Of a stretch of DNA of 64,000 nt, positions 38,793-56,700 are shown piece by piece. The stretch's first letter is position 1, and each line of letters begins with the position of its first letter. The translations under genes were made by a program, and so were the position numbers. This stretch comes from Armatimonadota bacterium (GTDB lineage: Bacteria > Armatimonadota > SYMT01): the NCBI GenBank assembly GCA_041690135.1, contig JAWLHY010000003.1, positions 544,001 through 608,000 on the forward strand. The letters are read 5' to 3'. The notes below the pieces were generated by a model. That model ran no database searches, was not told where the DNA came from, and saw nothing but the letters and a program-made list of their open reading frames with translations.

Positions 38793-39304
38793 GGCCACGC
38801 CTGCCCGGCGGAGCATAGGGTCTCTTACAGGTTCTGGTGCAAGAGGCTTGATTGCTTCGACGAGAGGCTCATCTGGGCTGAGGAGTTGCTGCAGATTCAC
38901 CACTCCTCGCCATGACGTGTATTTGCACTACCTGTCCACCCGAGCACCCGAACACCTGACCACCTCTTCTTCATCTTTCAAATCTGCGTCATCTGTGGAC
39001 TCTACCTGAAAGCCTGAATGCCCAACGCCCAATCCTTGCGGAAATCGGGAAATCCTGCGGGAAAGCGGTAGGCCGGGAGAGACCGCCCGCGAACTGACGA
39101 TATACTCCTCATGACAGGCGGTCGCTCCGCGGCCGCAAGGAAAGAGGCTGGTTCTGGGCGAACGAGATAGCCGGCAGGTTTCGTATCCATGAAACCTGGA
39201 AGCGTGTTGTGCGTCCAAAACTAAGGCCTATCGGATTTCCCCGCCGGCCTCTGCGGTTCTCTGGTTGCGGGGCCAGACGGTCATCGGGATTCTCACGACG
39301 TCAT

Positions 39305-40741
39305 ATGATCAGCATAAAAGGCAACAAGGCACGTCTCTGCGATGGGATCACGCGGCGGGATTTTGTCCGCCTGGGCGCCCTCGGGGCCATGGGCTTGAGC
39401 CTGCCGGAGGTGCTCCGGGCCGAGGCTGCGGCGGCGGAGGTCGCCAAGGCTTCCGGCAAGAGTTCCGGACGTCAGAAGAACGTCATCCTCTTCTTCCTCA
39501 TGGGCGGGCAGTCGCAGCTCGACATGTGGGACATGAAGCCGGACGCACCCGAGGGAATCCGCGGCGAGTTCAAGCCGATCAACACCAACGTCGATGGGAT
39601 TCAGATTTGCGAGCACATGCCGCTGCTCGCGCGCCGGGCGGACAAGTACGCCATCATCCGCTCGATGACGCACCACGTGAAGAACCACGCCCCCGCGGGT
39701 TACTTCGCGCTCACCGGCATGGCTCCCAAGCGGGACGTCAATAACTTCGGCCTGAACTCGGACGACTATCCGGCGCTGGGCTCGGTGGTGTCGTACCTCG
39801 ACCCCAGCAAAAAGAACGTTCCCACTTATGTGCAGCTTTCGCCCGGACTGGTCGGCGACACCGGCATCCAGATGCCCGGCTTCCACGCCGGGGTCCTCTC
39901 GGCCAAGTACGACCCGCTCAAGGTGACGAACGACCCGGATCAGGCGGGGTTCCAGGTAGAAGAGCTCTCGCTTCCCCGGCACATCAGCGAGAAGCGGCTC
40001 AACGCGCGCCGCTCGCTGCTGCAGTTGGTGGAGGATGAGTTCCCCCTGATTACGGAGTCGCCCACCGTCGGCAAGCTGGACCAGTTCTATCAGCGCGCCT
40101 TCAACCTGGTTACCTCGCCGGAGGCCCGCAAGGCGTTCGATATCGAGTCGGAGCCGCTCAAGCTGCGGGAGCGCTACGGTCGCAACATCTACGCTCAGCA
40201 GTGCCTCCTGGCCCGCCGCCTGGTGGAATCCGGCGTGCGCCTCGTCACCATCGTGTGGGGCGGCCCCATCAACGCGCCGCTCGACTACTGGGACACCCAC
40301 CAGGGCAACTTCCCGAAGCAGAAGGACAAGCTGATCCCGATCTTCGACAAGTGCTACAGCGCCCTCCTGGACGACCTGACGGAACGCGGCCTGATGGAGG
40401 ACACCCTCGTGGTGGCGATGGGCGAGTTCGGCCGCACCCCGCGCGTCGGCCAGATCACCGCCAACGGCGGCACGGACGCCACCGGTCGCGACCATTGGCC
40501 GTTCTGCTACAGCATCACGCTGGCGGGCGCCGGCATCCGCGGCGGGCAGGTGATCGGCAAGAGCGACGAGACGACCGCCACCTACACGGAACGCCCCGTC
40601 ACCCCGATGGACCTCACCGCCACCATCTACCACGCGATGGGGATCAACTACCAGGCGGAAATGCACGACCAGTTGAACCGGCCGCTCCCCATCGTCCGGG
40701 ACGGCGAGCCCGTCTACGAGCTCTGGGGCAGCAAGGTCTGA
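39305..40741 (+). CDS. DUF1501 family protein
   Basis: TRRDF Tat-like motif, GGQSQLDMWDMKP, WDTH, GEFGRTP, GRDHWP. Confidence 0.92.
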   Translation: MISIKGNKARLCDGITRRDFVRLGALGAMGLSLPEVLRAEAAAAEVAKASGKSSGRQKNVILFFLMGGQSQLDMWDMKPDAPEGIRGEFKPINTNVDGIQICEHMPLLARRADKYAIIRSMTHHVKNHAPAGYFALTGMAPKRDVNNFGLNSDDYPALGSVVSYLDPSKKNVPTYVQLSPGLVGDTGIQMPGFHAGVLSAKYDPLKVTNDPDQAGFQVEELSLPRHISEKRLNARRSLLQLVEDEFPLITESPTVGKLDQFYQRAFNLVTSPEARKAFDIESEPLKLRERYGRNIYAQQCLLARRLVESGVRLVTIVWGGPINAPLDYWDTHQGNFPKQKDKLIPIFDKCYSALLDDLTERGLMEDTLVVAMGEFGRTPRVGQITANGGTDATGRDHWPFCYSITLAGAGIRGGQVIGKSDETTATYTERPVTPMDLTATIYHAMGINYQAEMHDQLNRPLPIVRDGEPVYELWGSKV

Positions 40742-40976: not shown

Positions 40977-41201
40977 GTCCTGGATTAGAACCTGTGTTGG
41001 AAGTCCAGGTTCCTTGGGCCCTGCCGTTTGACGCCAGTTCAGACTCTGAATGCGCCCACTCCCGTCCCGCCGCACCGCGGGCTCACTGGCGGCCCAGCCT
41101 GCCGAGGACTGAGCGTGAATACCGTCGAACATCCCCGCAGACCACGTTGCTTCCGCGCTTGGTGGTCCGCTGCCACGTTGCAGCCTACCGGAGTCGATCC
41201 T

Positions 41202-42614
41202 ATGAACCGCGCTGCCTCCCTTCTCGGCCTCTTTGCGGTGCTCGCCTGCCTCGTGCTCCCCGCGTCCCGAACGGCGCGCGCCGCCGAACCGGTGAAGAAG
41301 CCGAACATCGTCCTCTTCCTCGCGGATGATCTCGGCTGGGGCGACCTGGGCTGCTACGGCCACCCGACGATCAAGACCCCCAACCTGGATGCTTTCGCCC
41401 GGCAGGGCGTGCGGCTCACGCAGTGCTACGCCGCCAGCGCGGTCTGCTCCCCGTCCCGCTCGGCGCTGCTGACCGGGCGCACGCCCCACCGGAACGGCGT
41501 CTACACCTGGATCGCGGAGGACAGCGAGGTTCACCTGCCGCGGACCGAAGTCACGCTGCCGAAGCTGCTCAAGGAGCAGGGCTACACCACCTGCCACTCC
41601 GGTAAGTGGCACCTGAACGGCAAGTTCAACGATCCGGCCCAGCCCCAGCCCCACGACCACGGCTACGACTGGTGGCTCGGCACCCAGAACAACGCCGCGC
41701 CCAACCACAAGAACCCCACCAACTTCGTGCGGAACGGCACCCCCGTGGGCCCAATGGAAGGCTACTCGGCCGTGCTGGTGGTGGAGGAGGCGGTCCGCTG
41801 GCTGAAACAGCACCGGGACCGCTCCAAGCCGTTCTTCCTGGCGGTGTGGACCCACGAGCCGCACCTGCCGATCGAGAGCGATCCGAAGTTCCAGGAACCC
41901 TACACCCAATTGCCGGATCCCGATCTCCGGCAGCACCACGGCAACGTGACCCAGATGGACCACGCCTTCGGCAACCTGATGAAGGCGCTGGACGAAGAGA
42001 AGCTGACCGGTTCCACCCTCGTAGCGTTCACCTCGGACAACGGTCCGGAAGGTACCGGCGAGAAGGGCCGCACCCGAGGCTCTACGGGCGGCCTGCGAGG
42101 TCGCAAGCGCGCTATGTATGAGGGTGGCATCCGGGTGCCGGGCATCGTCCGCTGGCCAGGCCGCATCCCGGCCGGCACCACGAGCGACCTTCCGGTGATC
42201 GGCAGCGACTTCTTCCCCACGCTGCTCTCCGCCGCCGGCGCCCGCATCCCGGCGGACCGGACCCTGGACGGCACGAATGTCCTGGGTGCGCTCAACGGCA
42301 AGGCAGACACGCTTGAGCGGAAGATCCCGCTCTACTGGCGCCTGCGGATGGCCCCGAACAACCTCCACCTGGCCATGCGGAAGGGGGACTGGAAGATCAT
42401 CGCCGCCGAAGACGGCTCAAAGTGGGAGCTCTACCACCTGAAGTCCGACCCCCAGGAAACCACCGACCTCCGGGAGCGCGATCCCTCCCGTTTCGAAACC
42501 ATGCGGAAAGAGCTGCTCGCCCTGAACGCCCAGGTTGAGGCCGAAGGCCCGGACTGGTGGAAACGCCTCAGTCCTAACGGCGGCCGCCCCCTGAAGCAAG
42601 GCGCGGCCAAATAG
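41202..42614 (+). CDS. Secreted arylsulfatase
   Basis: Signal peptide; ADDLG, CSPSRSALLTGR, GKWHL, SDNG. Confidence 0.93.
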   Translation: MNRAASLLGLFAVLACLVLPASRTARAAEPVKKPNIVLFLADDLGWGDLGCYGHPTIKTPNLDAFARQGVRLTQCYAASAVCSPSRSALLTGRTPHRNGVYTWIAEDSEVHLPRTEVTLPKLLKEQGYTTCHSGKWHLNGKFNDPAQPQPHDHGYDWWLGTQNNAAPNHKNPTNFVRNGTPVGPMEGYSAVLVVEEAVRWLKQHRDRSKPFFLAVWTHEPHLPIESDPKFQEPYTQLPDPDLRQHHGNVTQMDHAFGNLMKALDEEKLTGSTLVAFTSDNGPEGTGEKGRTRGSTGGLRGRKRAMYEGGIRVPGIVRWPGRIPAGTTSDLPVIGSDFFPTLLSAAGARIPADRTLDGTNVLGALNGKADTLERKIPLYWRLRMAPNNLHLAMRKGDWKIIAAEDGSKWELYHLKSDPQETTDLRERDPSRFETMRKELLALNAQVEAEGPDWWKRLSPNGGRPLKQGAAK

Positions 42615-43428: not shown

Positions 43429-45189
43429 ATGCTTTGCTCACGTTTTTCCCGGACCGCTCTTCTCATTTGTGGGTTTTTGCTCCCGCTGGGTTCCCTTTCG
43501 GCCACGCAGGCGCAGCCGGCGGCCGCTGAGACCCGGAAGCCGAACGTCATCCTGATCATGACGGACGACCAGGGCTATGGGGATCTCGGCGCCCACGGCA
43601 ACCGGATGATCCGCACACCGAACCTCGACCGTCTCCATGCGGAGAGCATCCGGCTCACGGACTTCCACGTCGACCCGACCTGTGCCCCGACCCGTGCGGC
43701 ATTGCTCACCGGCCGCTACTCCACCCGTACGGGTGTGTGGCACACGATCGCCGGTCGCTCCTTGATGGCGCACGACGAGGTAACGTTGGCGCAGGCATTC
43801 CGGAAGGGCGGCTACCGCACCGGCATCTTCGGCAAGTGGCACCTGGGGGAGAACTATCCCATGCGCCCGCAGGACCGCGGCTTCGACGAGGTGCTGGTTC
43901 ACGGGGGTGGGGGAGTGGCGCAGACACCCGACACCTGGGGCAACGACTACTTCGACGACACCTACCTGCGGAACGGCAAGCCGGAGAAGGCAAAGGGGTA
44001 TTGCACCGACGTCTGGTTCGATTCCGCGCTCCGGTTCATCGAGAAGTCGGGGAAGCGGCCGTTCCTGGCCTACATCCCCACCAACGCTCCCCACAGTCCC
44101 TATTTCGTGGACCCGAAGTACGCGGAGCCGTATCGCAAACAGGGGGTCCCGGACCCGATGGCCCAGTTCTACGGGATGATCACCCACCTGGACGAGAACG
44201 TGGGCCGGCTGCGGCAGCGGCTGCGGGACCTGGGCCTGGAGCGAGACACCATCATCTTCTTCATGACCGATAACGGCTCGGCGGCGGGCATGGTCCGCGG
44301 CAAGACCACCGGGCCCGGCTGGAAGGGCTACAACGCCGGTCTTCGGGCTCTCAAGGGCAGCGAGTACGATGGGGGCCACCGGGTGCCGTTCTTCGCCTAC
44401 TGGCCGGGGGGCGGTCTCACCGGGGGCCGGGATATCGACACGCTGGCGGCGCACGTGGACGTGGTCCCCACCCTGGCGGAGATCTGCGGGCTGAAGCTGC
44501 CGGACCGCTCCCTCGACGGCCGCAGCCTGCTACCTCTGCTGAGGGGGGAGAAGCGCGCCTGGCCGGAGCGGACCCTGTTCGTCCACTCGCAGCGCGTGCA
44601 GGACCCGGTGAAGTGGAAGCAGTCCGCCGTAATGACCCGCCGCTGGCGGCTGGTCAACGGGAAGGAGCTGTACGACATCCAGGCGGACCGGGGCCAGACG
44701 CGGGACCTGGCCGCGGAGCACCCGGAGGTCGTGACGCAACTGCGCGGCGAGTACGAGAAGTGGTGGACCGATCTCTCCCCCGCCTTCACCCGCGACGTGT
44801 CGATTGTCCTCGGCGGCAAGGAGAACCCGGTCGCGATCACCGCCCACGACTGGCGCGCCGCGGACGCCCAGGTGCCGTGGAACCACGGGATGATCGCGCG
44901 GCAGCCCCTTTCCAACGGCTGGTGGGCGGTCGACGTGCGGCGCCCCGGCACCTACACGGTCACCCTCCGCAGTTGGCCGCGGGAAGCGCCGGATGCCCCA
45001 GCCCTGGATGCCGGTACCGCGAAGCTGTCCGTCGGTGGCGTGGAGCAGAGCCGGCCGGTCCCGGATGGCGCCCGGTCCGTCACGTTCCAGGTGAAACTGC
45101 CGGCCGGCCCAACAAAGCTCCAGACCTGGCTTACCCGCCCCAACGGCGAAGCACGCGGTGCCTTCTATGTCGAGGTGAACCGGAAATAG
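43429..45189 (+). CDS. Secreted arylsulfatase with a C-terminal beta-sandwich extension
   Basis: TDDQGYGD, CAPTRAALLTGR, GKWHLG, TDNG. Confidence 0.93.
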   Translation: MLCSRFSRTALLICGFLLPLGSLSATQAQPAAAETRKPNVILIMTDDQGYGDLGAHGNRMIRTPNLDRLHAESIRLTDFHVDPTCAPTRAALLTGRYSTRTGVWHTIAGRSLMAHDEVTLAQAFRKGGYRTGIFGKWHLGENYPMRPQDRGFDEVLVHGGGGVAQTPDTWGNDYFDDTYLRNGKPEKAKGYCTDVWFDSALRFIEKSGKRPFLAYIPTNAPHSPYFVDPKYAEPYRKQGVPDPMAQFYGMITHLDENVGRLRQRLRDLGLERDTIIFFMTDNGSAAGMVRGKTTGPGWKGYNAGLRALKGSEYDGGHRVPFFAYWPGGGLTGGRDIDTLAAHVDVVPTLAEICGLKLPDRSLDGRSLLPLLRGEKRAWPERTLFVHSQRVQDPVKWKQSAVMTRRWRLVNGKELYDIQADRGQTRDLAAEHPEVVTQLRGEYEKWWTDLSPAFTRDVSIVLGGKENPVAITAHDWRAADAQVPWNHGMIARQPLSNGWWAVDVRRPGTYTVTLRSWPREAPDAPALDAGTAKLSVGGVEQSRPVPDGARSVTFQVKLPAGPTKLQTWLTRPNGEARGAFYVEVNRK

Positions 45190-46910: not shown

Positions 46911-47786
46911 TTATGCGGCCCGCACCTCGATCTGGCCCTCTCGCACTCGGGTCTCCAATGTCGGTTGCTTGAAGGCGGAAGGCCCTTCTTCCACGTGACC
47001 ATCCGCCAGGCAGAAGCGCGAGCCGTGCCACGGGCAGACGACGCTGCCGTCCGGTTTCAACTCCCCCTCGGAAAGCGGACCGCCGAGGTGGGCGCACTTC
47101 TCCACGAGCGCGTGGATCCGGCCCTCCTGTCGCACGAGCAGCACGGGGGTTCCGTTGGCTTCCACCTTCCGCAGCTCGCCCTCCGGCAGCTCGGCTTCGG
47201 CCAGCACGGGGGTGAAGTCGTCCGGTCCGGAATACTCCGCCGCATGGTTCGTGCCGATATTATGCTCGTACACCAGGTGCCCGCCCAGGTAGGCCCCGGC
47301 CATCAGGGCAGTAAAGCCGAGGAGGCCCGTGCCGCGGCCCGCGTTCCGGTGCCCCCGCTTTCGAAGCGCCAGCGAAGCGGCAAACAGGAGCGTCGCGCCC
47401 CCGTTGAACGCCGCGTGGAGAATGCCCACCTTCCGGGCCTCCCCACTGGTGTGATGCCAGTCCGCCAGGCCGGTAATCGCCGTACCCACCGCCGCCACCA
47501 GGCCCAGGGTCACGGCCGCGTCGGCCCCCGCGGACAACTCCTCTTTACCCCGCGCCGCATCGACCATGTCCAGGGTGACCGCCGTGGTCCAGGCCCCCAC
47601 GGGTACGTCCGTCAACACCGGATGCAGTGGATGTCCGAGCCAGGTACCGTGCAGAAAGTTGCGCGTCTTCACGGCCGCGGGCTCGGACCGATCCAGCACG
47701 GCCGCAACCGGCTTATCCAGTACCTCGCCGACCTGTTCGGTCCACTCCTGGTCTTCCAGCGTCTGCAGCGGTGTGGGCAGCGGCAT
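46911..47786 (-). CDS. DUF2231 membrane domain + Rieske [2Fe-2S] protein
   Basis: GHPLHPVLTDVPVG, GLADW, GGHLVY; CAHLGG and CPWHGSRF. Confidence 0.9.
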   Translation of the reverse strand: MPLPTPLQTLEDQEWTEQVGEVLDKPVAAVLDRSEPAAVKTRNFLHGTWLGHPLHPVLTDVPVGAWTTAVTLDMVDAARGKEELSAGADAAVTLGLVAAVGTAITGLADWHHTSGEARKVGILHAAFNGGATLLFAASLALRKRGHRNAGRGTGLLGFTALMAGAYLGGHLVYEHNIGTNHAAEYSGPDDFTPVLAEAELPEGELRKVEANGTPVLLVRQEGRIHALVEKCAHLGGPLSEGELKPDGSVVCPWHGSRFCLADGHVEEGPSAFKQPTLETRVREGQIEVRAA

Positions 47787-47937
47787 CTTCCATTCCTCCG
47801 GTATTTGCGGTCGGGAGCGGGTCATTCCCAGGCGCGATTGGGGGTCCGGCAAACGCCGGCAGGGGTGCCCGTCTCCCGGTCTCTTACCTCGATGCTCGTC
47901 TGAGCAAACCCTCTCCGGACGGGTGTTCCTCAGAAGA

Positions 47938-48531
47938 CTAATTCGGAGGGGAAGTTTGGCGCTCCGGCTTTGCTCTCTCGCAGGCGGATAGGATGCGGTT
48001 CCCGGCTGCATCGTACTTCGGGTTGAAGGGCGGCAACTTCGGAGAGCTCAGCACCGAGAAGACTACCAGCACGCCCGCCAGAGCGGCGAGGCTGACCAGC
48101 CGTGGGAAGGGGTTCAGAGCGGTAAGCCCCTGCCGTGCGGCGCCCGGTAGGAGCAGCGTTGTAACCACCCCATACGCCACCAGGCTTTGCTCCGGCGCGG
48201 CTCCCAGTCCAAATACTCCCTTTGGGCAGGCGAGCACCCCCGACCAGACAAGAGAGCTGTGGACGGCGGCCACCCCCAATCCGGAGAATGCCAGGGGTAG
48301 CGCCAACAGACTCAGCGTTCCAGGAGCAACAGGCAGTGCGGTGGCCAGACCCACGCCAAGCAGGGCGACAATCGCCATGATGAAGGTACGCTGGTAAAAG
48401 CAGAGCGGGCAGGCGTTCAGGCCCAGCCCCATGCTGAGGTAGAGGCTGCCCAGAAGGGTGCCCGCGGCGGCGAGGAGGGCCAGGCGCTCCCAGGGTACCA
48501 GTCTGACGGGCGTATCTTTGGCTTCTTTCAT
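47938..48531 (-). CDS. DsbB-family disulfide bond formation protein
   Basis: GSLYLS..GLNACPLCFYQR, additional periplasmic Cys; ATGA overlap with the desaturase gene. Confidence 0.8.
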   Translation of the reverse strand: MKEAKDTPVRLVPWERLALLAAAGTLLGSLYLSMGLGLNACPLCFYQRTFIMAIVALLGVGLATALPVAPGTLSLLALPLAFSGLGVAAVHSSLVWSGVLACPKGVFGLGAAPEQSLVAYGVVTTLLLPGAARQGLTALNPFPRLVSLAALAGVLVVFSVLSSPKLPPFNPKYDAAGNRILSACERAKPERQTSPPN

Positions 48532-49406
48532 GACGGCACGGCCTTTCCTGCCGGGTAGGGTTCGAGCTCTTCCGCGGGACGCCCGGTAGAGGCCTCGCGA
48601 GCGGGGATATCCATCTTTTCCAAGTTCGCAACGGGTGTCTTCACGAGACCCCAGAGGCCCTGCCACTCCTCGCCGTCAAACTCCCGCAGGCCGTAGCGGA
48701 GGGTGCGCGCGTCGTCGCGGCGCCGGAAGGTGCGGCCGAGGCGATCCCACCAGGAGAAGATGCTGGAATAGTTGGAGTCGGTTTCCGGCTGCCAGTCCGA
48801 GTGATGGACGCGGTGCATGTTGGGCGAGACGATCACCGTGCGCAAGAAGCGGTCGTACCGCTCCGGCAGGGCGACGTTACTGTGATGGAATGCGATCACC
48901 GGCAGGAGAAATGTCTCGTAGAGCACCACCTGCCAGAGCGTTAGCCCCAGGAGCGGTACGATGGCGAGCCGCAGTGTCGAGGAGATGATGATCTCGCCGA
49001 AGTGGAAACGCAGGGCGGTCGTCACGTCCATCTCGGGATCGCTGTGATGCATCCGGTGGAAGCGCCAGAGGAACGGCACGCGGTGGTTGGCCCGGTGCCA
49101 CACGTACATCCAGGCATCGAACAGCAGCAGCGCCAGCGGCAGCTCCACCCAGGCGGGTGCGGTGAGTTGGTGCAGCAGGCCGAAGCGAGTCTCCTCCGAC
49201 CATGCGGCCGCGCCCGCGATCGCGGCAGCGAAGAGGAGACCGAGGACCGCCATGTTGAGACCGGCCATCACGAGGTTCCGGAAGGCGTGGCGGTACCGGT
49301 GGGGACGATCGACAAACACGGGAACCCAGGTCTCCAGGCACCAGAGGAGCACCAGTACTCCCACCGCGATGCCCGTCTGGACCTGCAACAAACTCGGTGT
49401 ATCCAC
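48528..49406 (-). CDS. Sterol desaturase / fatty acid hydroxylase family protein
   Basis: His boxes HRANH, HRMHH, FHH, HRVHH. Confidence 0.9.
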   Translation of the reverse strand: MDTPSLLQVQTGIAVGVLVLLWCLETWVPVFVDRPHRYRHAFRNLVMAGLNMAVLGLLFAAAIAGAAAWSEETRFGLLHQLTAPAWVELPLALLLFDAWMYVWHRANHRVPFLWRFHRMHHSDPEMDVTTALRFHFGEIIISSTLRLAIVPLLGLTLWQVVLYETFLLPVIAFHHSNVALPERYDRFLRTVIVSPNMHRVHHSDWQPETDSNYSSIFSWWDRLGRTFRRRDDARTLRYGLREFDGEEWQGLWGLVKTPVANLEKMDIPAREASTGRPAEELEPYPAGKAVPS

Positions 49407-49408
49407 GG

Positions 49409-49759
49409 CTATTCATCCTCTCCCCGCACGAGCGGTCCGCGCCAGGCCCGGATCCCTCCGGCCAGGTTGCGAACGTTCCTGAATCCTCGCTGGGCCAGCA
49501 CCCGGCTGGCCTGGGCACTTTTCAGCCCCACATTTCAATAGACCACGACCGGCTCGTCAGGATTCAGGTCCGCGGACACCGCTTCGAGGGTGCCGGACGG
49601 CACGTGTCGCGCGCCCGGCAGATGCCCGGAGGTGAACTGCTCCGTGGCGCGAATGTCCAGCAGAAGCAGCGGCCGAACGGACGCCATTTCCGCCTCCAGC
49701 GCGGCGGCCGAAACTTCCGGAACCGATGGAGAAACGAGAGCGAGTAGACGAGACAGCAT
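49409..49759 (-). CDS. Rhodanese-domain protein with predicted selenocysteine at the active site (116 aa, U75)
   Basis: AAGGAGG SD; LDIR..QFTSGHLPGA; in-frame TGA 49535-49537 at the catalytic Cys position; readthrough gives UNVGLKSAQASRVLAQRGFRNVRNLAGGIRAW...EDE, ending at TAG 49409, 2 nt before the next start. Confidence 0.88.
49493..49530 (-). promoter_or_regulatory. Candidate SECIS hairpin(s) for the rhodanese UGA
   Basis: UGGG-GCU-GAAA-AGU-G-CCCA (loop at +12) and GGCCAGC-CGGGU-GCUGGCC (loop at +31). Confidence 0.55.
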
Positions 49760-49803
49760 GGGACCTCCTTTGCCCTCAGCTTCTCACCCGGGGATATAAA
49801 CAA

Positions 49804-49842
49804 CTAGACAGGTTTCATGGGCCAGCCATAGAGAAAGGCTAT
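49804..49842. promoter_or_regulatory. LysR-type binding sites in the divergent promoter
   Basis: ATAG-N7-CTAT (T-N11-A) at 49828-49842 and a degenerate CTAG-N7-TCAT at 49804-49818. Confidence 0.6.
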
Positions 49843-49846
49843 AGCG

Positions 49847-50776
49847 GTGGAGATCACCTTCCGGCAGCTCCGCTATTTCCGCGCCGTGGCGGAACACGGG
49901 AACTTCACACGGGCGGCCGAGGCGCTGCTGGTGGCGCAGCCCACCGTCAGCCTTGCTATCAAGGACCTGGAGCGGGAGACGAAGGCGGTCCTGTTCGAGC
50001 CCGCGGGCCGCCAGGTGCGGTTGACGGCCGCGGGGCGCCTCCTGCTGCGCCACTGCGAGCGCATCCTGGGGGAAATGGACGCCATCGAGATCTCCCTGAG
50101 TGAGTTGTGGGGTGGGCAGGCAGGGAAGCTGGTCGTGGGGGCGAGCAGCACGCCCGGCACCTATCTGCTGCCCGAAATCCTCGGCAAGTTCCGAGCCGGG
50201 TCCCCACGGGTGGAAGTGGCGCTGGAGGTGACGGATACCGGCGAAGTGCTCCGCCGCGTGCAGGACGGCCGTCTCGACCTCGGGGTTGTCGGGGAAGCCC
50301 CCTTCGATCCGGCGCTCCACATCATGACCTTCCGCCGGGAAAGGCTGGTGCTGATCCTCTCCCCCGAACACCGTCTGGCCCGCCAGCGCTGGGTGACACT
50401 GCCGGACCTCTCCGGAGAGGCTTTTATCTGCCGGGAGGCGGGCTCCAGCACGCGAGAGATCGTCCGGCGCGCCCTGGAAGCACGAGGCATGGAGCTCCCG
50501 GTCACGATGGAGCTGGGAAATACCGAGGCGGTGAAGCGAGCGGTCTCCGCCGGCTTAGGTATCGCCTTCGTTTCGGAGCACGCGGTCGGGCTGGAAGTCC
50601 GGGCCGGCGTGCTCGTCACGCGAGAGATGCCGGACCTGGAGCTGACCCGCGGCCTTTACGTCGTCCGGAGAAGCAGCCTTCCCCTCACCCGGCTGCACGA
50701 GCGCTTCCTGGAGGTGCTCCTCGGCCATGGCGGGGTCTCGCCGCCGGTGCCGCCGGATGGCGCCGCCCCCTTCTGA
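49847..50776 (+). CDS. LysR-family regulator, CysL-like
   Basis: GNFTRAAEAL..AQPTVS HTH; GASSTPGTYLLP, REAGSSTR, ELGNTEAVKRAV.AGLG. Confidence 0.93.
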   Translation: MEITFRQLRYFRAVAEHGNFTRAAEALLVAQPTVSLAIKDLERETKAVLFEPAGRQVRLTAAGRLLLRHCERILGEMDAIEISLSELWGGQAGKLVVGASSTPGTYLLPEILGKFRAGSPRVEVALEVTDTGEVLRRVQDGRLDLGVVGEAPFDPALHIMTFRRERLVLILSPEHRLARQRWVTLPDLSGEAFICREAGSSTREIVRRALEARGMELPVTMELGNTEAVKRAVSAGLGIAFVSEHAVGLEVRAGVLVTREMPDLELTRGLYVVRRSSLPLTRLHERFLEVLLGHGGVSPPVPPDGAAPF

Positions 50777-50832
50777 AGACGATTCCTTGGGCGAATGGGC
50801 GCCGCCCCGGCACTGACGGTATCATGGGTGCA

Positions 50833-51258
50833 ATGCGTCCGTTCCTAAGCCACGCGGTGCGACTGGTCTTCTTACCGGTCGTGGTCCTTCTCCTGGGTTT
50901 CGCGCCCGGACCGTGGTATTGCGCCGATGGTTCTCCGTGCGCGGCGACCGCCGCCGCCTGCTGCTGCGGCTGTGCGGAAGCCGGGGGGACGGAGATCCAC
51001 GTCTGCGAGGACGCCGCCCCCGGCGAGGCGCTTTCCCCGGAAACCTGCGGCTGCTACCGGCTGGCGGTGGCGCCCGAATGCGTACCCGCGGGGGATCGCG
51101 AGCGACCCGACGTGGAGCCGGGCTTGCCGGCCCCGGTTGCGGTGATCGTCCCGCCGTTGCTGGTCGCCTCCCCGCGCGCTACTCCCGCCTCGGCGCACAG
51201 TCCACCTACCCATCTCATCTCCTCCGGGGACCCTCGCGGTCCGCCGCCCATCGGATAG
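50833..51258 (+). CDS. Cys-rich exported leader protein ending in RGPP (DUF2946/CutF/CruR-like arrest-peptide candidate)
   Basis: ATG 50824 or 50833; hydrophobic N-terminus, WYCADGSPC, CCCGC, CGC, Pro-rich tail ...DPRGPPPIG*. Confidence 0.72.
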   Translation: MRPFLSHAVRLVFLPVVVLLLGFAPGPWYCADGSPCAATAAACCCGCAEAGGTEIHVCEDAAPGEALSPETCGCYRLAVAPECVPAGDRERPDVEPGLPAPVAVIVPPLLVASPRATPASAHSPPTHLISSGDPRGPPPIG

Positions 51259-51333
51259 AGACCTGCAGTCCGTACCCACGCGACCCGGGTGGTACCGCGT
51301 GAGCAGTGATTCCTATCCATTGGAGATGATCTT

Positions 51334-52254
51334 TTGAGAGCCTATGCAGTTCTGCCGGCCTTGTGGCTGGTTGTAGTATCTGTCGCGGCGCCGGGGCCCG
51401 TGCGCGCCGCAACCCTACTAACCGCACCCCGGATGGCCGTTTGCGCCGTCTGTCGTGAGGGCGAGGAGCCGGTGCTGGCAACGGCGGTCCACCAGGGCCG
51501 CGAGTTCACCTTCTGCAGCGAGGAGTGCAAGAAGACCTTCCTCGCCAACCCGGCCGAGTTCTTGACCCATTCCCCAGCCGAACCGAAGCCTGCAGCCCCT
51601 AACCTTCAACCTTCAACTTCCAACCTTCAACCTGCCAACCCTGATCCCGTTATGCCAAACCGCAGAAGTCCTGGAGGCTCTGCGGCTCCCAGCTGACCGA
51701 GTTGACCCGGTGAGGGAACCTCCGTGCGAGGTTCAGGAGATCTACTGGCAACGCGTTTCAACCTGGGTATCCGGTACATTCCGGACGGAGTGATCGATCG
51801 GGCCAAATGGCGGAACACCCTGATGTACCGCCTGAGCCAGGACCTGCAAGCGGGTGTCGAATACAACCCGCTGGCGGATGATGTCGGGCTACTGGTCAAC
51901 TGGCGCGCCCTCCGCGAGACGGAGAATCGTCCGGCGCTTTCATTCGGCACTTCGTCGGACCGGATCGGCACCCCCTACGGGCGGGCTTACTTCGCCACGC
52001 TTTCGAAGGACCTGGAGCCGCGCATCGGGCTGCCCGTCAGCGTGTACGGGGGCGTGCTCTGGGGCTCGTTCGAGGATGAGTTCGTCTTCCCGTTCGGGGC
52101 GAACTTCCGGCTGGGCAACCAGTGGACGTTCACCCCACAGTACGACGGACACGCCTCCCACGGGCTGCTCACCTATTCGTGGGATCGTTACAGCGTCAGC
52201 GGCCTGCTGATCCGCTGGCGCTACCCGGGCGTGGCGTTTAATATCGGCTTCTGA
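51334..52254 (+). CDS. Exported YHS-domain + beta-barrel protein with a predicted UxxU (U121, U124; 306 aa)
   Basis: GGAGA SD + TTG; signal peptide; YHS motif CAVC...FTFCSEECKKTFLANP; in-frame AGC-TGA-CCG-AGT-TGA-CCC joins ORF 51334..51696 to ORF 51724..52254; C-terminal AFNIGF. Confidence 0.78.
51716..51734 (+). promoter_or_regulatory. Candidate SECIS hairpin
   Basis: GAACCTC-CGTGC-GAGGTTC, a perfect 7-bp stem; loop 17 nt after the second UGA and 26 nt after the first. Confidence 0.6.
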
Positions 52255-52432
52255 ACCCGATCGGTGCTCTCTCTGACACGGAGGGACACAGATTGGACGG
52301 GACGGAACGCAGAAGAACACGGCGGGACCGAGCCGTTCGCGGGCGATGGGGTCACCACGGAGCGCATAGAGACCACGGAGTGGAACCCCTTCCTTCTCCG
52401 AGGTCTCCGTGCGCTCCGTGGTGATTTCGTTC

Positions 52433-53320
52433 TTAAAAGAACGTCTCGAACGCAAACCGCAGCTCGTAGGGGTAGTCGCTGTGGTCCTGGGCGCCGCTGC
52501 GGGCGACCGGGACGAACACCCCGAACCGGAGCTGGTGATTGCCCTGGATGAACATCTGCGTGACGTGGAACCCGAACAGCCGGTGCCCGTTGTTCGCGTC
52601 GCGCCCGCTGCCCAGCGGGTCGTCCGCGTGGAACTCCCCGTGGATGCCGAAGGCGGTGTTCAGTCCCAGATCGGATGCCTCCACCTGCGGCTTGAACCAC
52701 CGCCCGTAAGCCGCGTCGAACATCAACATATCGCCCATGCGGAAGCCGCCCCCCACGTCGCGGTTCCAGACCACGCTGGCCCAGGTGGTGTCGTCCAGCC
52801 GCTCCAGGTCCCAGGCATACCCCAGCATGATCCCGGGATTGCCCGTCCCGGTCTGCGAGTGCGGGTCGAGGCGCTCCCCGGCGAGGCGGTGGCCGTCGTC
52901 GCCGGTGGGAAGCTTGATCCCATAGAAGATCGACTGCTGCTGATTGACGCCGATCTCCTGCCGCGCGGCGATCCGAGTCTTGGCGCGCAGGCTGAGGTCA
53001 CCCACCCCGGAAACCGTGGTGGAGCGCACCCCGCCTCCCGCCCGCCGCTCGTGGAGCGCGTTGTAGTAGGGGATCATCAGGCGGACGTTCAGCTTCGGAC
53101 TGAAGCCGTAGTCCACCATATACTCCTGCTCGAACATCCGCATCCGCTCGCCGCCCCGGCGGACAGTACCCGCGTCGAAGTATTTGAACTTCACTTCCGG
53201 GTGAATGACGCCAAACCCGAAGGTGATCGGCGTCTCCCCCCAGAGCGGCTCATGCGCCCGGGCCGGGGTAGCCCCAAGCAGCAGCGCCGCCAGGAGGCCG
53301 ATGCGTAGCATGCAATTCAT
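52433..53320 (-). CDS. Putative outer-membrane beta-barrel transporter
   Basis: Signal peptide (ARA/HEP), SGVGDLSL, GIKLPTG, QTGTG, C-terminal RFAFETFF; GGAGG SD just after the HMA gene. Confidence 0.75.
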   Translation of the reverse strand: MNCMLRIGLLAALLLGATPARAHEPLWGETPITFGFGVIHPEVKFKYFDAGTVRRGGERMRMFEQEYMVDYGFSPKLNVRLMIPYYNALHERRAGGGVRSTTVSGVGDLSLRAKTRIAARQEIGVNQQQSIFYGIKLPTGDDGHRLAGERLDPHSQTGTGNPGIMLGYAWDLERLDDTTWASVVWNRDVGGGFRMGDMLMFDAAYGRWFKPQVEASDLGLNTAFGIHGEFHADDPLGSGRDANNGHRLFGFHVTQMFIQGNHQLRFGVFVPVARSGAQDHSDYPYELRFAFETFF

Positions 53321-53332
53321 CGGATCGCCTCC

Positions 53333-53884
53333 TTATCGCTTCGGCCTCTTGTCTTCGGCGCCGTAGATCGCGGTGACCGCCAGGGAGCCCTTGCTGTCCG
53401 GACCCTGCGGATCGGGTTTCCAGAGCCCTTCCACCTCGACCTGGTCACCTACATGCCGGTTCAGCTGCACAGCAGTGTCCGGGTCCTCTTTCGCAGCCAC
53501 CACAGAGAGCGAGGTGGGGGATTTCATGCCGTCCAATTCGAGGAGCAATGTGTCTCCCCGTTTTACGACGGTGCCGGAGACGACCAACTCCACCTGGTCC
53601 TCGATCGGCTTGTAGCCGGCCTCCCGGATCTTCTCGAGCATCTTCGGGATCTCGGGCCAGGCACCGGGCTTCACCTTTACCTCCATGTGCGGAGGTCGAA
53701 GAATCAACTTGGATTGAGCAACGCCATCCAGGCGCTGCAGCCCCTTACGGAGCGTAATGCCTCAGGTCGCTCACGTGGCCCCTTTGATACCCAGCTTGAC
53801 GAGCTTGACATCGGCCAGGCCCGGAGAGGCGAGCAAGGAAGTAAGGGCGACGGAAGCCCCGAAGAAGAGAACCTTTCTAAACAT
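53333..53884 (-). CDS. Exported heavy-metal-associated (HMA, MerP/CopZ-like) protein with a predicted UxxU metal site (U38, U41; 183 aa)
   Basis: ATG 53884; signal peptide; LGIKGAT-U-AT-U-GITLRKGLQRLDGV...KIREAGY follows the HMA pattern GMxCxxC..I...L..L.GV...I..AGY; TGA at 53771-53773 and 53762-53764; joins ORFs 53771..54118 and 53333..53707. Confidence 0.88.
53737..53760 (-). promoter_or_regulatory. Candidate SECIS hairpin
   Basis: GCA-(UUAC)-GCUCC-GUAA-GGGGC-UGC; loop starts at +14 and +23 from the two UGAs. Confidence 0.5.
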
Positions 53885-53968
53885 GCGCAGTCGATCCAAT
53901 CCAGTTCCCGCGCCGGGAACAGTCACGCCGATCCATGCGGATGGCATAGGGAGTGGGGATGAAATGGA

Positions 53969-54095
53969 TGTTGTTGGAAAACCCACGGATGTCATGGGCC
54001 ACAGGACCGTAGGGAATGTGACGCCGTTCCATTCCGCTGGTCCGGCACTTGATCCCGTGGCGCCAAGAGTGCGCAGTCCGGGTTTCCCAACAGCA
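53969..54095. mobile_element. MITE-like element containing a GTAG REP
   Basis: Terminal IR TGTTGTTGGAAAACCC / GGGTTTCCCAACAGCA (14/16); internal REP at 54009-54039. Confidence 0.55.
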
Positions 54096-54189
54096 ACCGT
54101 AAAGATCCCCTCCGGCAATCCTGACCCGCATCCCGGTGAGATTCCGGGGCGAAGGGCGGAGCACGCCGGAGTTTGGAGCAGTGGAGGGA

Positions 54190-54678
54190 CTACGCAGTGG
54201 GCGGGGCTCGTGATGGCCCCAAAGAGAGGAGCGGAGGCGGGCTATGCCCCAGCGGATCAGCGGGGCGGGTACCGAACGTCGCCGTCAGCAGAGGGGGCGA
54301 CAGGTGAGCCGGCGGCAACAAACCGTCGGGAGCCGACTCGGGGTGTGAGGTCGTGGAGGTTCGCAGCGAGGGCGCGGCCGGCCGGGAAGAGACGATGAAC
54401 CGGCAGTGATCGCCGGTAGAAATCTGGGCTCCCGGACCCGGAGGCGCAGCCGCCAGCCCGGGATACCGGCCATGTCCGCAGCGAAGTTGCACCGGTGAGA
54501 CGCAGCAGGAAGCAGCTTCTACCCCGGCGGTACGGTCGTCCTTCGCGCAGTGGTACCCCCGGCTGTCGGCCACGCAGGGAGTGCCGTCCGGGCAGGACCA
54601 GTACGCGGCAAAGGGTGCGACCGGTCCCAGGACCAGCGTCAGGATCAGCAGTATCGCCAGGAGCAGCCGTCTCATCAT
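54190..54678 (-). CDS. Cys-rich exported leader protein ending in RAPP (DUF2946/CutF/CruR-like arrest-peptide candidate)
   Basis: Signal/TM segment; YWSCPDGTPC, SCC, CGH, DHC; Pro-rich tail ...GPSRAPPTA*. Confidence 0.75.
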   Translation of the reverse strand: MMRRLLLAILLILTLVLGPVAPFAAYWSCPDGTPCVADSRGYHCAKDDRTAGVEAASCCVSPVQLRCGHGRYPGLAAAPPGPGAQISTGDHCRFIVSSRPAAPSLRTSTTSHPESAPDGLLPPAHLSPPLLTATFGTRPADPLGHSPPPLLSLGPSRAPPTA

Positions 54679-54883
54679 GGGTAAGCGAGACCGGAAAGGA
54701 TCCGTCTCTGCTTAACCATACGGCACCCTCGGTCCCGGCGTCATCGCGAACGTGACAGTCGCGGGCACCTCTTTCCGTCCTAACTCCGCTGAAGGCCTCG
54801 AGCGAGTTCGGACGATCCGCATCCTGGGAAATACGACTTTGAAGCGACTCGAACTGAGCTGCGGGAGTGGACTGGAGGTAGGG

Positions 54884-55585
54884 ATGGAACGGGCGCAATT
54901 CTGGAAGGGGCTCGCGATCGGGATCGCGGCCACCCTGCTGGCGGCCGTTCTGATCATGCTAGTTTCGCTAACGGTGATGAGCGCGAACCAGGATGCAGGT
55001 GGTATCCCTCCGATGAACGGCGCCCGGCATGAGGATCCTCCCACGCGCCGCGAGACGAATGGCGGGATGATGGACCCGGACGGCATGATGGGCGGCGGCA
55101 GGATGATGGACGGCATGCCGCCCTGGATGATGAGCCGGCCGGATACCGGCGCGGCGGGTGGCGGCCCGGAGATGATGCGGGACATGCGGACCATCCGCCA
55201 ACTTCTGACCCAGCATGAGAAGATCGAGCGTTACCTGTGGGAGATCCCCGGCGGGGTCCGCGCCGTGACGACCAGCGAAGATCCGCAGGTGGCCCAGGCG
55301 ATCCGCACGCATGTCCGCCAGATGAAGGAGCGGCTCGAGCAGGGGCAGCCGATCCGGATGATGGACCCCCTCTTCCGCGAGCTCTTCCGGCATCACGAGA
55401 AGATCAACATACAGGTCGAAGAGGTGCCGGGCGGCGTACGCGTGACGGAAACCTCGCAGGACCCACAGGTGACGGCGCTTATCCGCCAGCATGCAAACCG
55501 GGCCGTCTCCGAGTTCGTGGAGCGGGGCATGCCGCGGGCCATGGAGCCGACGCCGCTGCCGCCTGGCTATGAGACCGGCCGGTGA
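54884..55585 (+). CDS. Membrane-anchored Met-rich periplasmic protein
   Basis: GGAGG SD + ATG 54884; TM; GGMMDPDGMMGGGRMMDGM; internal duplication HEKI......PGGVR...TS.DPQV...IR.H. Confidence 0.75.
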   Translation: MERAQFWKGLAIGIAATLLAAVLIMLVSLTVMSANQDAGGIPPMNGARHEDPPTRRETNGGMMDPDGMMGGGRMMDGMPPWMMSRPDTGAAGGGPEMMRDMRTIRQLLTQHEKIERYLWEIPGGVRAVTTSEDPQVAQAIRTHVRQMKERLEQGQPIRMMDPLFRELFRHHEKINIQVEEVPGGVRVTETSQDPQVTALIRQHANRAVSEFVERGMPRAMEPTPLPPGYETGR

Positions 55586-55617: not shown

Positions 55618-56700
55618 TCAGAACTGCGAGAAGAGCAGTCCGCCCGCCAGCCCCAACACCAGGACGAACAGGCCCAGGCAGGCCGCCGCGCGATAGGAGC
55701 CCAGCACCTTCCCCAGCATCCAGAGGGAGGGGAAGCTGACCGAGGGCAGCACCACCAGCAGCGCCACGGCCGGGCCTTCGCCCATTCCGGCCCGGGTAAA
55801 CTCCGAGACCCAGAGGACTTCCGTGAAGGTCGGGACCATCAGCAGGGTCCCGAGCAGGGAGGCCGCCGCGGTGGGCAGCAGCCCGTTGCCGAAGCTCCGC
55901 GCCACCGCTTCCACCGGCAGCGCGGTCTTGAGCAGCCCGATCAGGAGAAAGCCGAGCAGCAGCATCGGCAGGACCATCCGGGCGATGGCGGCGGTCTGGG
56001 CCAGCCAGCGAGCGAGCATCTCGCCGACGGAGGTATCCGGCGGCGGACCTACCGGACAGACTTCCTCTTCCTGCTTGCCCGGTATCAACCGGCTCGCCAG
56101 GTACGTGGCGCCCAGGGCAGCGGCCACTCCCAGAACCAGCCGGGCCACGGCCAGCTTTACCGGCAGCAACTCGAAGGCGAGGATGAGGGTGACGGTGTTC
56201 AGCGCCGGCGCGGTGACGAAGTAAGCCATGGCCGCACCCCGTCCGGCGCCGGAGGCCCGCAGCCCCGCGGTAGCTCCCACCGCGCAGCAGGAGCAGAACA
56301 TACTCGGGAGCCCCATGATTAGGCCCGCAAACTGCTGCCGGAACCCGTTTCCGCCCAGATGTCGCCGGATCAACTCCGGCAGAAAGGCCTGGACCGCGCC
56401 GCCGATGAAGAGGCCGAGCAGGGTCGCCGACCAGACCGCATTCACATAATCGACGGTGTAGAGGAACGGCAAGGCCCACTGCGGTGCGTGCTGAAGATCC
56501 AGCGAGAGCGGAAACTTCGTGCCCAGGGGAGTGACGTTGACGATCCCCAGCTTGTTCAGCAGTGAGAGGATGCGGTACTGGAACACCAGCCCGAACAACA
56601 CCGCGAAGACGCCGAACACGACCCCATTGCGCTGGCGACGACTGAGAGGGGTGGGCCGGACGCTCTCCGGCTCTGGCATGGGGGCTGCAAGCGTGGACAT
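55618..56700 (-). CDS. DUF318/ArsP-like permease
   Basis: PSMFCSCC, AMAYFVTAPALN, GMGEGPAVALL..LPSVS. Confidence 0.85.
   Translation of the reverse strand: MSTLAAPMPEPESVRPTPLSRRQRNGVVFGVFAVLFGLVFQYRILSLLNKLGIVNVTPLGTKFPLSLDLQHAPQWALPFLYTVDYVNAVWSATLLGLFIGGAVQAFLPELIRRHLGGNGFRQQFAGLIMGLPSMFCSCCAVGATAGLRASGAGRGAAMAYFVTAPALNTVTLILAFELLPVKLAVARLVLGVAAALGATYLASRLIPGKQEEEVCPVGPPPDTSVGEMLARWLAQTAAIARMVLPMLLLGFLLIGLLKTALPVEAVARSFGNGLLPTAAASLLGTLLMVPTFTEVLWVSEFTRAGMGEGPAVALLVVLPSVSFPSLWMLGKVLGSYRAAACLGLFVLVLGLAGGLLFSQF

Follow-up and report, generated by a model that had tools for sequence, protein, structure and literature searches.

Five in-frame UGA codons in an Armatimonadota gene cluster best read as selenocysteine, and a family of double-selenocysteine barrel proteins

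Three neighbouring genes of an Armatimonadota bacterium are interrupted by five in-frame TGA codons, and the locus thus raises a simple question, namely whether these codons are stops or positions of selenocysteine (Sec, U), and what the resulting proteins would do. The stretch of DNA analysed, referred to here as the window, comprises 64,000 nucleotides (nt) of contig JAWLHY010000003.1 (assembly GCA_041690135.1, positions 544,001 to 608,000), and all coordinates are those of the window, 1-64,000. The interrupted genes encode a rhodanese, an exported protein with an HMA domain in which the pair Sec-x-x-Sec (UxxU) stands in the metal-binding loop, and a protein in which a YHS domain and a second UxxU pair precede an outer-membrane beta-barrel. 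From the sequence comparison, the five TGAs are best read as Sec decoded by SelB and a selenocysteine insertion sequence (SECIS), because the machinery is present, the homologues have Cys or TGA at each position and the sequence downstream is conserved. The account as a whole, including its observed and its inferred parts, has in our estimate a probability of about 0.75. The Sec-rhodanese and the UxxU HMA-like selenoprotein are already curated kinds; the barrel family is the real find.

Under translation table 11, each of the three genes appears as separate open reading frames (ORFs). The rhodanese gene is split into 49535..49759 and 49409..49531, the HMA gene into an N-terminal piece and 53333..53707, and the third gene into a YHS part (51334..51696) and a barrel part (51724..52254). 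Reading TGA as U gives single proteins of 116, 183 and 306 amino acids (aa), respectively. This bears out the proposal of the initial annotation that three TGA-split genes read through into coherent proteins, and all five TGAs are where it had placed them. Among the 13 genes of the cluster, 5 end with TGA as a normal stop, namely the fatty-acid hydroxylase, the LysR regulator, the barrel gene itself, the Met-rich protein and the permease, and TGG codons are found in 13/13; therefore the genetic code is not changed, as the initial annotation had also held. The fragmentation that it foresaw in standard annotation is visible in public data as well, where homologues are "hypothetical proteins" starting past the second TGA. 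In a large protein collection the barrel has 1071 matching clusters, and the best 120 of the 1071 are all without a Pfam domain or an informative name, being mostly 176-residue fragments. The HMA family is small in the protein database, with 16 clusters, of which 16/16 are unnamed fragments of 112-145 residues that begin after the second TGA.

The Sec machinery that such a reading presupposes is present in the window's own genome (G000; 9.1 Mb, 25 contigs, 97% complete). A genome profile search found selA (566.6 bits), selB (383.6) and selD (369.6), all above cut-off, and a tRNA-Sec with anticodon UCA scored 67.2 bits, a result with which ARAGORN agrees. The genes selA, selD and tRNA-Sec form one tight cluster on contig 1 (1149453-1152359; L001, L017, L020), and selB is sited apart from it on contig 8. 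The selD gene carries an in-frame TGA of its own in the canonical KCGGUASK loop, and is therefore an internal positive control that Sec decoding is in use. A tRNA-Ala(GGC) gene lies about 70 nt downstream of the cluster. Close homologues with 73-77% identity bear names that put the genome in Armatimonadota. Among 41 genomes searched, the window's own counted, 32 have selA. It was found in 11/11 relatives with TGA-bearing HMA or barrel homologues, and none of the 9 selA-less relatives has such a homologue. As a test this co-occurrence is modest, since selA is widespread among these bacteria.

Homologues were compared for all three genes. For the barrel protein, a scan of species-representative genomes, one per species, gave 533 candidate stretches, of which 513 proved to encode a relative; the Sec and Cys forms and the partners were counted on the best 80 loci of these 513 relatives. 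Both TGAs are in frame, giving UxxU, in 70 of the 80, nine loci are CxxU and one is cut by a contig end. The motif (V/A)PSUPxUPGEG is common to the orthologues and the distant relatives, and is followed by about 170 conserved residues. Full-length homologues of the HMA protein number 13, in 12 of 400 other genomes of the phylum, with 7 UxxU, 5 CxxU and one CxxC form (G225); the second position of the pair is Sec in all but that one, and a weaker CxxU relative is found in G007. In alignments with PDB sequences, the UxxU of the HMA protein falls exactly on the GMTCxxC loop of CopA, ATP7B and MerP, in agreement with the idea that UxxU here replaces CxxC. For the rhodanese, the 14 best loci were compared, each from a different genome and with that of the window among them. 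Its active-site residue is U in G000 and in G005, a relative of the same family (VVVYU(N/G)xG), and Cys in the other 12, which confirms the placing of U at the catalytic Cys. The recurrence of in-frame TGAs among relatives is far above chance.

A hairpin 3' of each set of UGAs was also claimed at the outset, and stem-loops are indeed found shortly 3' of the UGAs in all three genes. The barrel hairpin was tested on an ungapped alignment of 80 sequences, with slid-partner controls and 500 shuffles. Its helix of 7 base pairs (bp), at columns 23-29/35-41, is paired in 81.8% of the cells versus 25-60% with slid partners; the covariation is 0.291 versus 0.139, with 49 cells changed on both sides, a score reached by 0/500 shuffles. 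A second register of the hairpin, 5 columns downstream, suits the barrel sequences of the Vulcanimicrobiota type. The two barrel UGAs are 9 nt apart and the base of the helix comes after both, and therefore one hairpin element has to serve both UGAs. In the HMA gene, the two adjacent hairpins are paired in 89.6% of the cells of a 14-sequence alignment versus 42-54% when slid, and helix 2 shows compensatory changes at its base. The two UGAs of this gene are likewise 9 nt apart, and the structure that follows must serve the pair. This double hairpin occurs in 14/14 Sec-form genes and is missing from the single CxxC-form gene, in which the 43-nt region after the codons reaches -6.0 kcal/mol versus -15.5 to -23.7 in the Sec forms. 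The claim thus holds with covariation and controls for the barrel and HMA genes. In the rhodanese the hairpin is a candidate SECIS seen in two sequences, the hairpin of G005 being a different one of 7 bp, about 19 nt downstream of the UGA. A search of all Rfam families over 49300-54800 gave no SECIS family match, only a sub-threshold MIR6032 (37 bits vs 102).

Table 1. Genes, Sec codons and candidate recoding hairpins of the cluster, in window coordinates.
Feature	Coordinates	Strand	Description
DUF2231-Rieske fusion protein	46911..48011	-	Final gene of the minus-strand rhodanese operon
DsbB-like protein	47938..48531	-	Same strand and operon as rhodanese
Fatty-acid hydroxylase family membrane protein	48528..49406	-	2 nt past the rhodanese stop, same operon
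Sec-rhodanese gene	49409..49759	-	116 aa, one rhodanese domain, loop VVVYUNVGLKS, stop TAG; Pfam Rhodanese 1.3e-19
Candidate SECIS hairpin, rhodanese	49493..49511	-	7 bp, GC-rich, loop CGGGU, start 26 nt 3' of UGA
UGA = Sec75 of rhodanese	49535..49537	-	
LysR-type regulator	49847..50776	+	Divergent from rhodanese operon, stop TGA; HTH_1 and LysR_substrate
Cys-rich membrane-anchored protein 1 (WYCADGSPC)	50824..51258	+	Upstream partner of barrel gene, also in G005 and G003
Double-Sec outer-membrane protein (predicted)	51334..52254	+	306 aa: signal peptide, YHS, Pro-rich linker, PSUPSUPGEG, predicted 12-stranded beta-barrel; stop TGA
UGA-CCG-AGU-UGA = Sec121-Pro-Ser-Sec124	51694..51705	+	UGAs at 51694-51696 and 51703-51705
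SECIS-like barrel hairpin GAACCUC-CGUGC-GAGGUUC	51716..51734	+	Base 10 nt past second UGA, 19 nt past first
295-aa outer-membrane channel candidate (PF13557-like)	52433..53320	-	Directly downstream of HMA gene
Double-Sec HMA protein	53333..53884	-	183 aa; signal peptide, then GATUATU in the HMA domain, then an extra domain of about 90 aa at the C-terminus
Two adjacent HMA hairpins 3' of UGAs	53718..53753	-	53740-53753, loop GUAA; 53718-53738, loop UGGAU
UGA-GCG-ACC-UGA = Sec38-Ala-Thr-Sec41	53762..53773	-	UGAs at 53771-53773 and 53762-53764
Cys-rich membrane-anchored protein 2 (WSCPDGTPC)	54190..54678	-	Upstream partner of the HMA and outer-membrane protein pair
Met-rich exported protein (MMDPDGMMGGGRMMDGMPPWMM)	54752..55585	+	System membership uncertain
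ArsP_1-type permease with FCSCCAVG	55618..56700	-	Distant kin of SO_0444 Cu/Zn efflux and SaoE transporters; membership uncertain

Could the TGAs be true stops, belonging to separate small genes or decaying pseudogenes, with read-through frames that are coincidental? Gene callers do annotate the pieces separately, and just past the barrel UGAs stands a GTG preceded by GAGGGA, which resembles a ribosome-binding site. However, this apparent ribosome-binding site and the GTG start both fall inside the barrel hairpin, of which the former is the covarying 5' arm, and a barrel begun at that GTG would be without a signal peptide. Additionally, the motif and the frame are kept across phyla with amino-acid conservation on either side of the two TGAs, and the Cys forms are uninterrupted. 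By these comparisons true stops appear effectively refuted, and we leave them next to no probability. The UGAs might instead be read, but not as Sec; a tRNA(Cys) resembling tRNA-Sec could insert Cys, or near-cognate read-through could put in Trp or some other residue. There are described natural cases of SelB-dependent Cys insertion at UGA, some homologues have Cys in these columns, and some database proteins have W there. Against this, selA and the Sec-containing selD adjoin the tRNA-Sec gene, TGA is a normal stop in the local genes counted above, and the TGA-bearing homologues occur only in selA-positive relatives, while the W forms are most simply gene calls under a table with TGA=Trp. Decoding as anything other than Sec is thus very improbable. 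The barrel homologues P0249 and P0139 have Trp exactly at the Sec columns (PSWVMWPGEG, PACVGWPGEG), for which gene calling under the TGA=Trp table is the likeliest cause, making a second type of mis-annotation.

Given that Sec is the best reading of the UGAs, the barrel family can be described in its complete form. By the titles of their records, the best 80 loci include 49 from Acidobacteriota, 33 of these from Pyrinomonadaceae, 6 from Armatimonadota/Abditibacteriota, 5 each from Planctomycetota and Verrucomicrobiota, and 4 from Vulcanimicrobiota/Xenobia, the rest being other or unlabelled. CxxC forms (PTCAGCAGEA) were found in 4 of the distant representatives. In a quick tree, the CxxC forms are one clade with a support of 96, CxxU arises repeatedly within Verrucomicrobiota and Planctomycetota, and motif-less forms are nested. 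A genome-wide motif scan of G000 found the window copies of the barrel and HMA motifs to be the only real ones, the other hits being out-of-frame noise. Seven of the barrel loci (which carry L-numbers) are labelled Selenomonadaceae, Burkholderiales, Actinomycetota or Clostridia, namely L064, L069, L071, L080, L060, L107 and L136, and their barrel genes cluster tightly in the tree with those of Vulcanimicrobiota, Armatimonadota or Acidobacteriota. This mismatch may come from a wrong label or binning of metagenome-assembled genomes, or from gene transfer.

The module before UxxU varies in the family. It can be a signal peptide alone, a YHS domain as in the window (PF04945, 31.8 bits vs a cut-off of 30.3), or a YHS domain and a TlpA-like redoxin with WCGPC, and the Pyrinomonadaceae proteins have a Cys-rich beta domain and a redoxin in front of UxxU. 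That extra beta-rich domain (L081-L139) covers about 100 residues, has the conserved motif VVCCA(D/E)CWAE and no Pfam match, and stands before the redoxin, for example at residues 24-125 of L113:5119-6570. In 62 of the best 80 loci the UxxU barrel has a TlpA-like redoxin, either on the same polypeptide or from a neighbouring gene (Pfam Redoxin/AhpC-TSA, with E-values as low as 3e-23). A separate gene combining YHS and redoxin lies directly upstream of the barrel in Abditibacteriaceae, Thermoanaerobaculia and G003, and downstream in G018/G031. The redoxin is the strongest functional clue; it is seen only in relatives and was absent from the initial annotation.

The C-terminal 165 residues or so of the barrel protein are predicted to form a closed 12-stranded outer-membrane beta-barrel with a KdgM-like fold. 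In the AlphaFold2 (AF2) model, residues 40-206 have a predicted local distance difference test score (pLDDT) of more than 94, and the tail with UxxU comes out disordered. The structural matches are led by KdgM (Z 16.4, root-mean-square deviation 2.5, 152/171 aligned), FapF (15.9) and the COG4313 channel (15.6), with further matches to LpxR, autotransporter beta-domains (13.5-14.9, with EstA at 14.9) and PcoB (8.9). No model of Pfam or NCBIfam matches the barrel, and NCBIfam has nothing at E<=0.01 for the 306-aa protein. The sequence family of the KdgM/NanC porins was ruled out, with no Pfam hit and 10-13% identity in the structural alignments. The YHS-domain selenoprotein NF041384 (GxU) was also considered; it gave no NCBIfam match at E<=0.01, and the Sec residues of the barrel protein lie outside its YHS domain. 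The tail should lie on the periplasmic side, as the topology rule predicts for barrels with an even number of strands. An envelope location of both UxxU proteins, as first proposed, fits their signal peptides and the predicted outer-membrane barrel.

The HMA protein is the second bearer of a UxxU pair. A phmmer search of its HMA region against the PDB finds CopA N-domains with E 9e-10. The nearest NCBIfam models are MerP (TIGR02052) and the UxxU metal-binding selenoprotein (NF041115, UxxU_metal_bind), and membership was ruled out for both, with 39.1 bits against a cut-off of 92.55 and 36.9 bits against 95. The protein is thus a distant relative, not a member, of the known family NF041115. Its gene adjoins a homologue of the 295-aa outer-membrane protein in 6/6 relatives with flanks (G005, G004, G002, G003, G018, G007). 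The 295-aa neighbour is a candidate channel that resembles the PF13557 type. In an Atlas feature search, 25 of its 30 hits belong to the PF13557 (Phenol_MetA_deg) family with a score of 0.98, and PF13557 is found in 4 of 93 homologue clusters, the window protein itself having no Pfam hit. For the HMA protein, the Atlas gave unnamed clusters only. Residues 22-31 of the 295-aa protein, AHEPLWGETP, come right after the signal peptide and are invariant or nearly so across 52 homologues. Copper sites with an N-terminal His are known from CopC-type proteins, and the 295-aa protein would resemble them if cleavage leaves His first.

From these elements a chain of metal handling can be proposed, although as a whole it falls somewhat short of an even chance. 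The selenolate pair of each UxxU would bind a soft metal ion in the periplasm, most likely Cu(I), or Hg(II)/Ag(I). The HMA protein would then be a carrier of the MerP/CopZ kind that docks on its partner channel, and the tethered YHS domain and UxxU tail of the barrel protein could hand the ion to, or take it from, their own pore. In the periplasm, ready oxidation of the UxxU pair to a diselenide is to be expected and the site would therefore need a reductant; the TlpA-like CxxC redoxin may keep the pair reduced. TlpA is known to keep the copper-binding cysteines of ScoI and CoxB reduced. Counted in favour of metal are the YHS domain above cut-off, the position of UxxU on the CxxC of CopA/ATP7B/MerP, and the MerP and UxxU_metal_bind models as nearest in NCBIfam, and, as further context, the SO_0444-like permease and the Met-rich protein in the window and a CDF transporter and an OEP gene downstream at the barrel locus L129. 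By domain homology, the soft-metal capture by selenolates proposed in the initial annotation is a reasonable if putative reading.

Several results weigh against this account. The HMA domain (PF00403) scores 24.7 bits, 0.1 bit below the gathering cut-off of 24.8. No redoxin gene stands near the barrel in the window or in G005, its closest relative, and G000 has at least 7 TlpA-like genes elsewhere, so that the redoxin step, if it applies in the window, would rely on one of at least 7 distant genes. In the AF2 model of a 484-aa fusion relative (L113) there are three confident domains, but the UxxU linker is disordered (pLDDT <50), the predicted TM score (pTM) is 0.50, and the tail is neither in the pore nor on the redoxin; the model is uninformative as to docking. 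A Pfam survey of 10 distant barrel loci gave no conserved partner besides YHS/redoxin, the neighbours being variable and mostly unrelated to metals. The candidate SECIS of the rhodanese has two sequences behind it, with hairpins at different positions and too few for a covariation test. Among the sequencing runs listed for the locus there is no RNA run and one DNA-like soil run (share 0.08), of which the scattered 151-nt contigs leave the TGAs uncovered. Lastly, the fold is common to autotransporter beta-domains (Z 13.5-14.9), which would put the N-terminal modules outside the cell.

The last point leads to a rival view, in which the YHS, redoxin and UxxU parts are passengers threaded through the barrel to the cell surface, or the UxxU linker plugs or gates the pore. 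In its favour are the order of domains, with a signal peptide, passenger-like modules and a linker ahead of a C-terminal barrel of 12 strands, and the similarity in fold to the beta-domains of EstA, BrkA, NalP and AIDA-I, as well as to FapF (Z 15.9). But the barrel, of only some 165 residues, has KdgM as its nearest match, AF2 predicts a disordered linker and no helix in the pore, and the shortest barrel forms are without any passenger. Periplasmic TlpA-type reductases depend on DsbD/CcdA, and an extracellular one would have no electron donor. We consider this autotransporter-like arrangement improbable. A more serious rival, though on balance an unlikely one, takes the UxxU pairs as redox centres, with a diselenide/diselenol couple, fed by the redoxin, reducing or oxidising a substrate at the outer membrane, be it a disulfide, a peroxide or a metal or metalloid in oxidised form, and the YHS and HMA folds as mere scaffolds. 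The frequency of the redoxin in the barrel loci and the DsbB encoded in the window speak for it, and according to passages of a 2026 review most bacterial selenoproteins are thiol-oxidoreductase-like (PMC13188914). It has to contend with the exact position of the HMA UxxU on the canonical metal loop of a metallochaperone fold, with the YHS domain, a metal-binding one, being fused or adjacent in the window and at many loci, and with the lack of a redoxin in the window's own cluster. The redox and the metal readings overlap and are not mutually exclusive.

Metal handling by the UxxU proteins being preferred, it remains to be asked whether the three genes make up one system. The initial annotation had proposed a single co-regulated system around LysR, a claim that stands only in part. 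In G005, the LysR gene, the Sec-rhodanese and the fatty-acid hydroxylase are on contig C37, the second Cys-rich protein, the HMA protein and the outer-membrane protein on C8, and the first Cys-rich protein and the barrel on C10; therefore the window juxtaposes three separable modules. G003 keeps together the second Cys-rich protein, the outer-membrane protein, the HMA protein, the first Cys-rich protein, YHS/redoxin and the barrel, and the order in G018 is the 295-aa protein, HMA, barrel, and YHS with redoxin; linkage between the two metal-type modules is thus a recurrent feature. LysR is linked only to the rhodanese operon in both G000 and G005, and the rhodanese/LysR module is joined to the metal-type modules only in the window. 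By gene order, the rhodanese operon appears to be a separate module, tied to the metal modules by adjacency only. Upstream of each UxxU gene stands the gene of a small, Cys-rich protein anchored in the membrane, and the two such proteins show weak paralogy; searches of Pfam and NCBIfam gave no family for the first of them.

The rhodanese domain itself is clear (PF00581, 70.9 bits vs a cut-off of 22.2), with U in the catalytic Cys column, and the regulator has both HTH_1 (76.5 bits) and LysR_substrate (185.3 bits) in Pfam. The divergent order of LysR, Sec-rhodanese and fatty-acid hydroxylase is found in G005 as well. The model NF041203 (rhodanese_LYCAU, a CxU form) was tried for the Sec-rhodanese and ruled out, its 38.7 bits falling well below the cut-off of 115. 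Rhodanese-like selenoproteins with the motif UxxG, "forms 2 and 4", are listed in Table 1 of the 2026 review (PMC13188914). As far as that table goes, these and the window protein (U-N-V-G) share a single rhodanese domain with Sec at the catalytic Cys, a placement made by motif alone. The Sec-rhodanese is cytoplasmic, single-domain and of an already known kind, and its gene comes first in the operon. In the intergenic region shared by LysR and the rhodanese operon, an inverted repeat ATAG-N7-CTAT of the T-N11-A type, ATAGAGAAAGGCTAT, lies at 49828-49842, 5 nt before the LysR start. It was spotted by eye as a candidate LysR box, and was rejected since it is not seen in the intergenic region of G005.

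How do these proteins compare with known systems? The initial annotation considered UxxU best known from selenoprotein L; it is not known from there only, as the bacterial UxxU HMA-like family NF041115 is already curated. Eukaryotic selenoprotein L has its UxxU in a thioredoxin fold and its SECIS in the 3' untranslated region. Like the UxxU of the window, it has two Sec two residues apart, with a diselenide possible, but the fold and the decoding differ and there is no homology. NF041115 shares with the window HMA protein the HMA-type fold, UxxU at the metal-binding loop and a predicted heavy-metal role; the window protein differs by its signal peptide, its C-terminal domain of about 90 aa and its constant pairing with an outer-membrane channel gene. 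MerP and CopZ have the same ferredoxin-like HMA domain, and the MerP match includes the signal-peptide region. Unlike them, the window protein has Sec for both Cys, a C-terminal extension and no mer/cop operon around it, and it is far below the CopZ cut-off (23.1 vs 91 bits). In Table 1 of the 2026 review, NF041115 corresponds to the "putative mercuric reductase" selenoprotein of the Olavius symbiont (PMC13188914).

For the barrel protein, KdgM/NanC, FapF, the COG4313 channels, autotransporter beta-domains and PcoB share the predicted fold of its C-terminal 165 residues, but with 5-16% identity, and none has the Sec pair or the YHS/redoxin N-terminal module. TlpA with ScoI/CoxB is similar in that a periplasmic CxxC reductase acts on a neighbouring metal-binding chalcogen pair, and in the barrel relatives redoxin and UxxU are fused or adjacent. 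By this analogy, the target in the window family would be a diselenol on an outer-membrane protein, whereas there it is a Cys pair on an inner-membrane-anchored chaperone. Envelope or multi-Sec selenoproteins known from the tabulated part of the 2026 review include the barrel of the GSU2204 family, a TonB-dependent receptor with FCYXU, NF041384 and the SAO and Tso operons (PMC13188914). As described there, they resemble the window in having Sec in envelope or transport proteins tied to heavy metals and in their clustered selenoprotein genes, but the motif, the fold and the partners differ from those of the window barrel, and there is no family match. The barrel family is not among the 119 families of Table 1 of that review, through which alone the families of Haft & Tolstoy 2025 (mSystems) are considered here. 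It is also not in the searched passages of the deep-Sep and BSepDB papers, a search that did not extend to the BSepDB database itself, and full-text literature searches on selenoprotein with UxxU, outer-membrane barrel, YHS/TlpA, Armatimonadota and Acidobacteri did not find it.

On these grounds we tentatively regard the PSUPxUPGEG barrel as a large, so far unannotated family in which a periplasmic-face diselenol is tethered to a 12-stranded outer-membrane protein, and which would be the first outer-membrane selenolate metal gate or redox relay, a proposal whose odds are a little under even. Hundreds of species carry it, from Acidobacteriota, Armatimonadota, Planctomycetota, Verrucomicrobiota and Vulcanimicrobiota; the Sec form is the rule with few exceptions, and the barrel usually makes one polypeptide with its own TlpA-like reductase and/or YHS metal domain. 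Through this family, aerobic soil lineages would have Sec in their outer membrane and periplasm, with ties to reductases of the TlpA type as well as to metal domains of the YHS/HMA kinds. If the reading is true, the barrel gene would be a natural example in which a single SECIS hairpin of a bacterium recodes both members of a UGA pair 9 nt apart, and the UxxU barrel, the UxxU HMA carrier and its own channel would form a selenium-dependent envelope metal pathway in the window. The paired UGAs 9 nt apart with conserved hairpins, in two unrelated gene families, are a natural system for the reach of SelB from a SECIS. All three genes are cut by gene callers, which represents a recurrent annotation blind spot in soil and freshwater phyla. 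Passages of the deep-Sep paper state a limitation of methods that rely on abundant Cys homologues. The near-constant Sec form of the barrel may explain why such methods missed the family.

Other features of the locus and of its relatives are of minor weight. The permease scores 101.8 bits for ArsP_1 (PF03773) against a cut-off of 32.3, and its membership of the SO_0444 Cu/Zn efflux family (NF033936) was ruled out at 72.4 vs 300 bits. The exported protein next to it has a Met/Gly/Asp-rich stretch, MMDPDGMMGGGRMMDGMPPWMM, and two E(I/V)PGGVR(A/V)xTxSxDPQV repeats; Pfam gave no family above cut-off. Met-rich stretches are typical of Cu(I)-handling periplasmic proteins. Upstream of the cluster there are three sulfatase genes, at 37066-38400 (-), 41028-42614 (+) and 43429-45189 (+), and in the same region a DUF1501 gene at 39209-40741 (+), all unrelated to the selenoproteins. 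A promoter and terminator scan of the locus found sites no more frequent than in shuffles. The gap 52254-52433, where the barrel gene and the gene of the 295-aa protein converge, has terminator-like hairpins at 52319-52336 (-) and 52407-52421 (+), and a sub-threshold Rfam match to a plant miRNA (37 bits vs 102) falls inside it at 52344-52432. The likeliest reading of this gap is a structured bidirectional terminator region.

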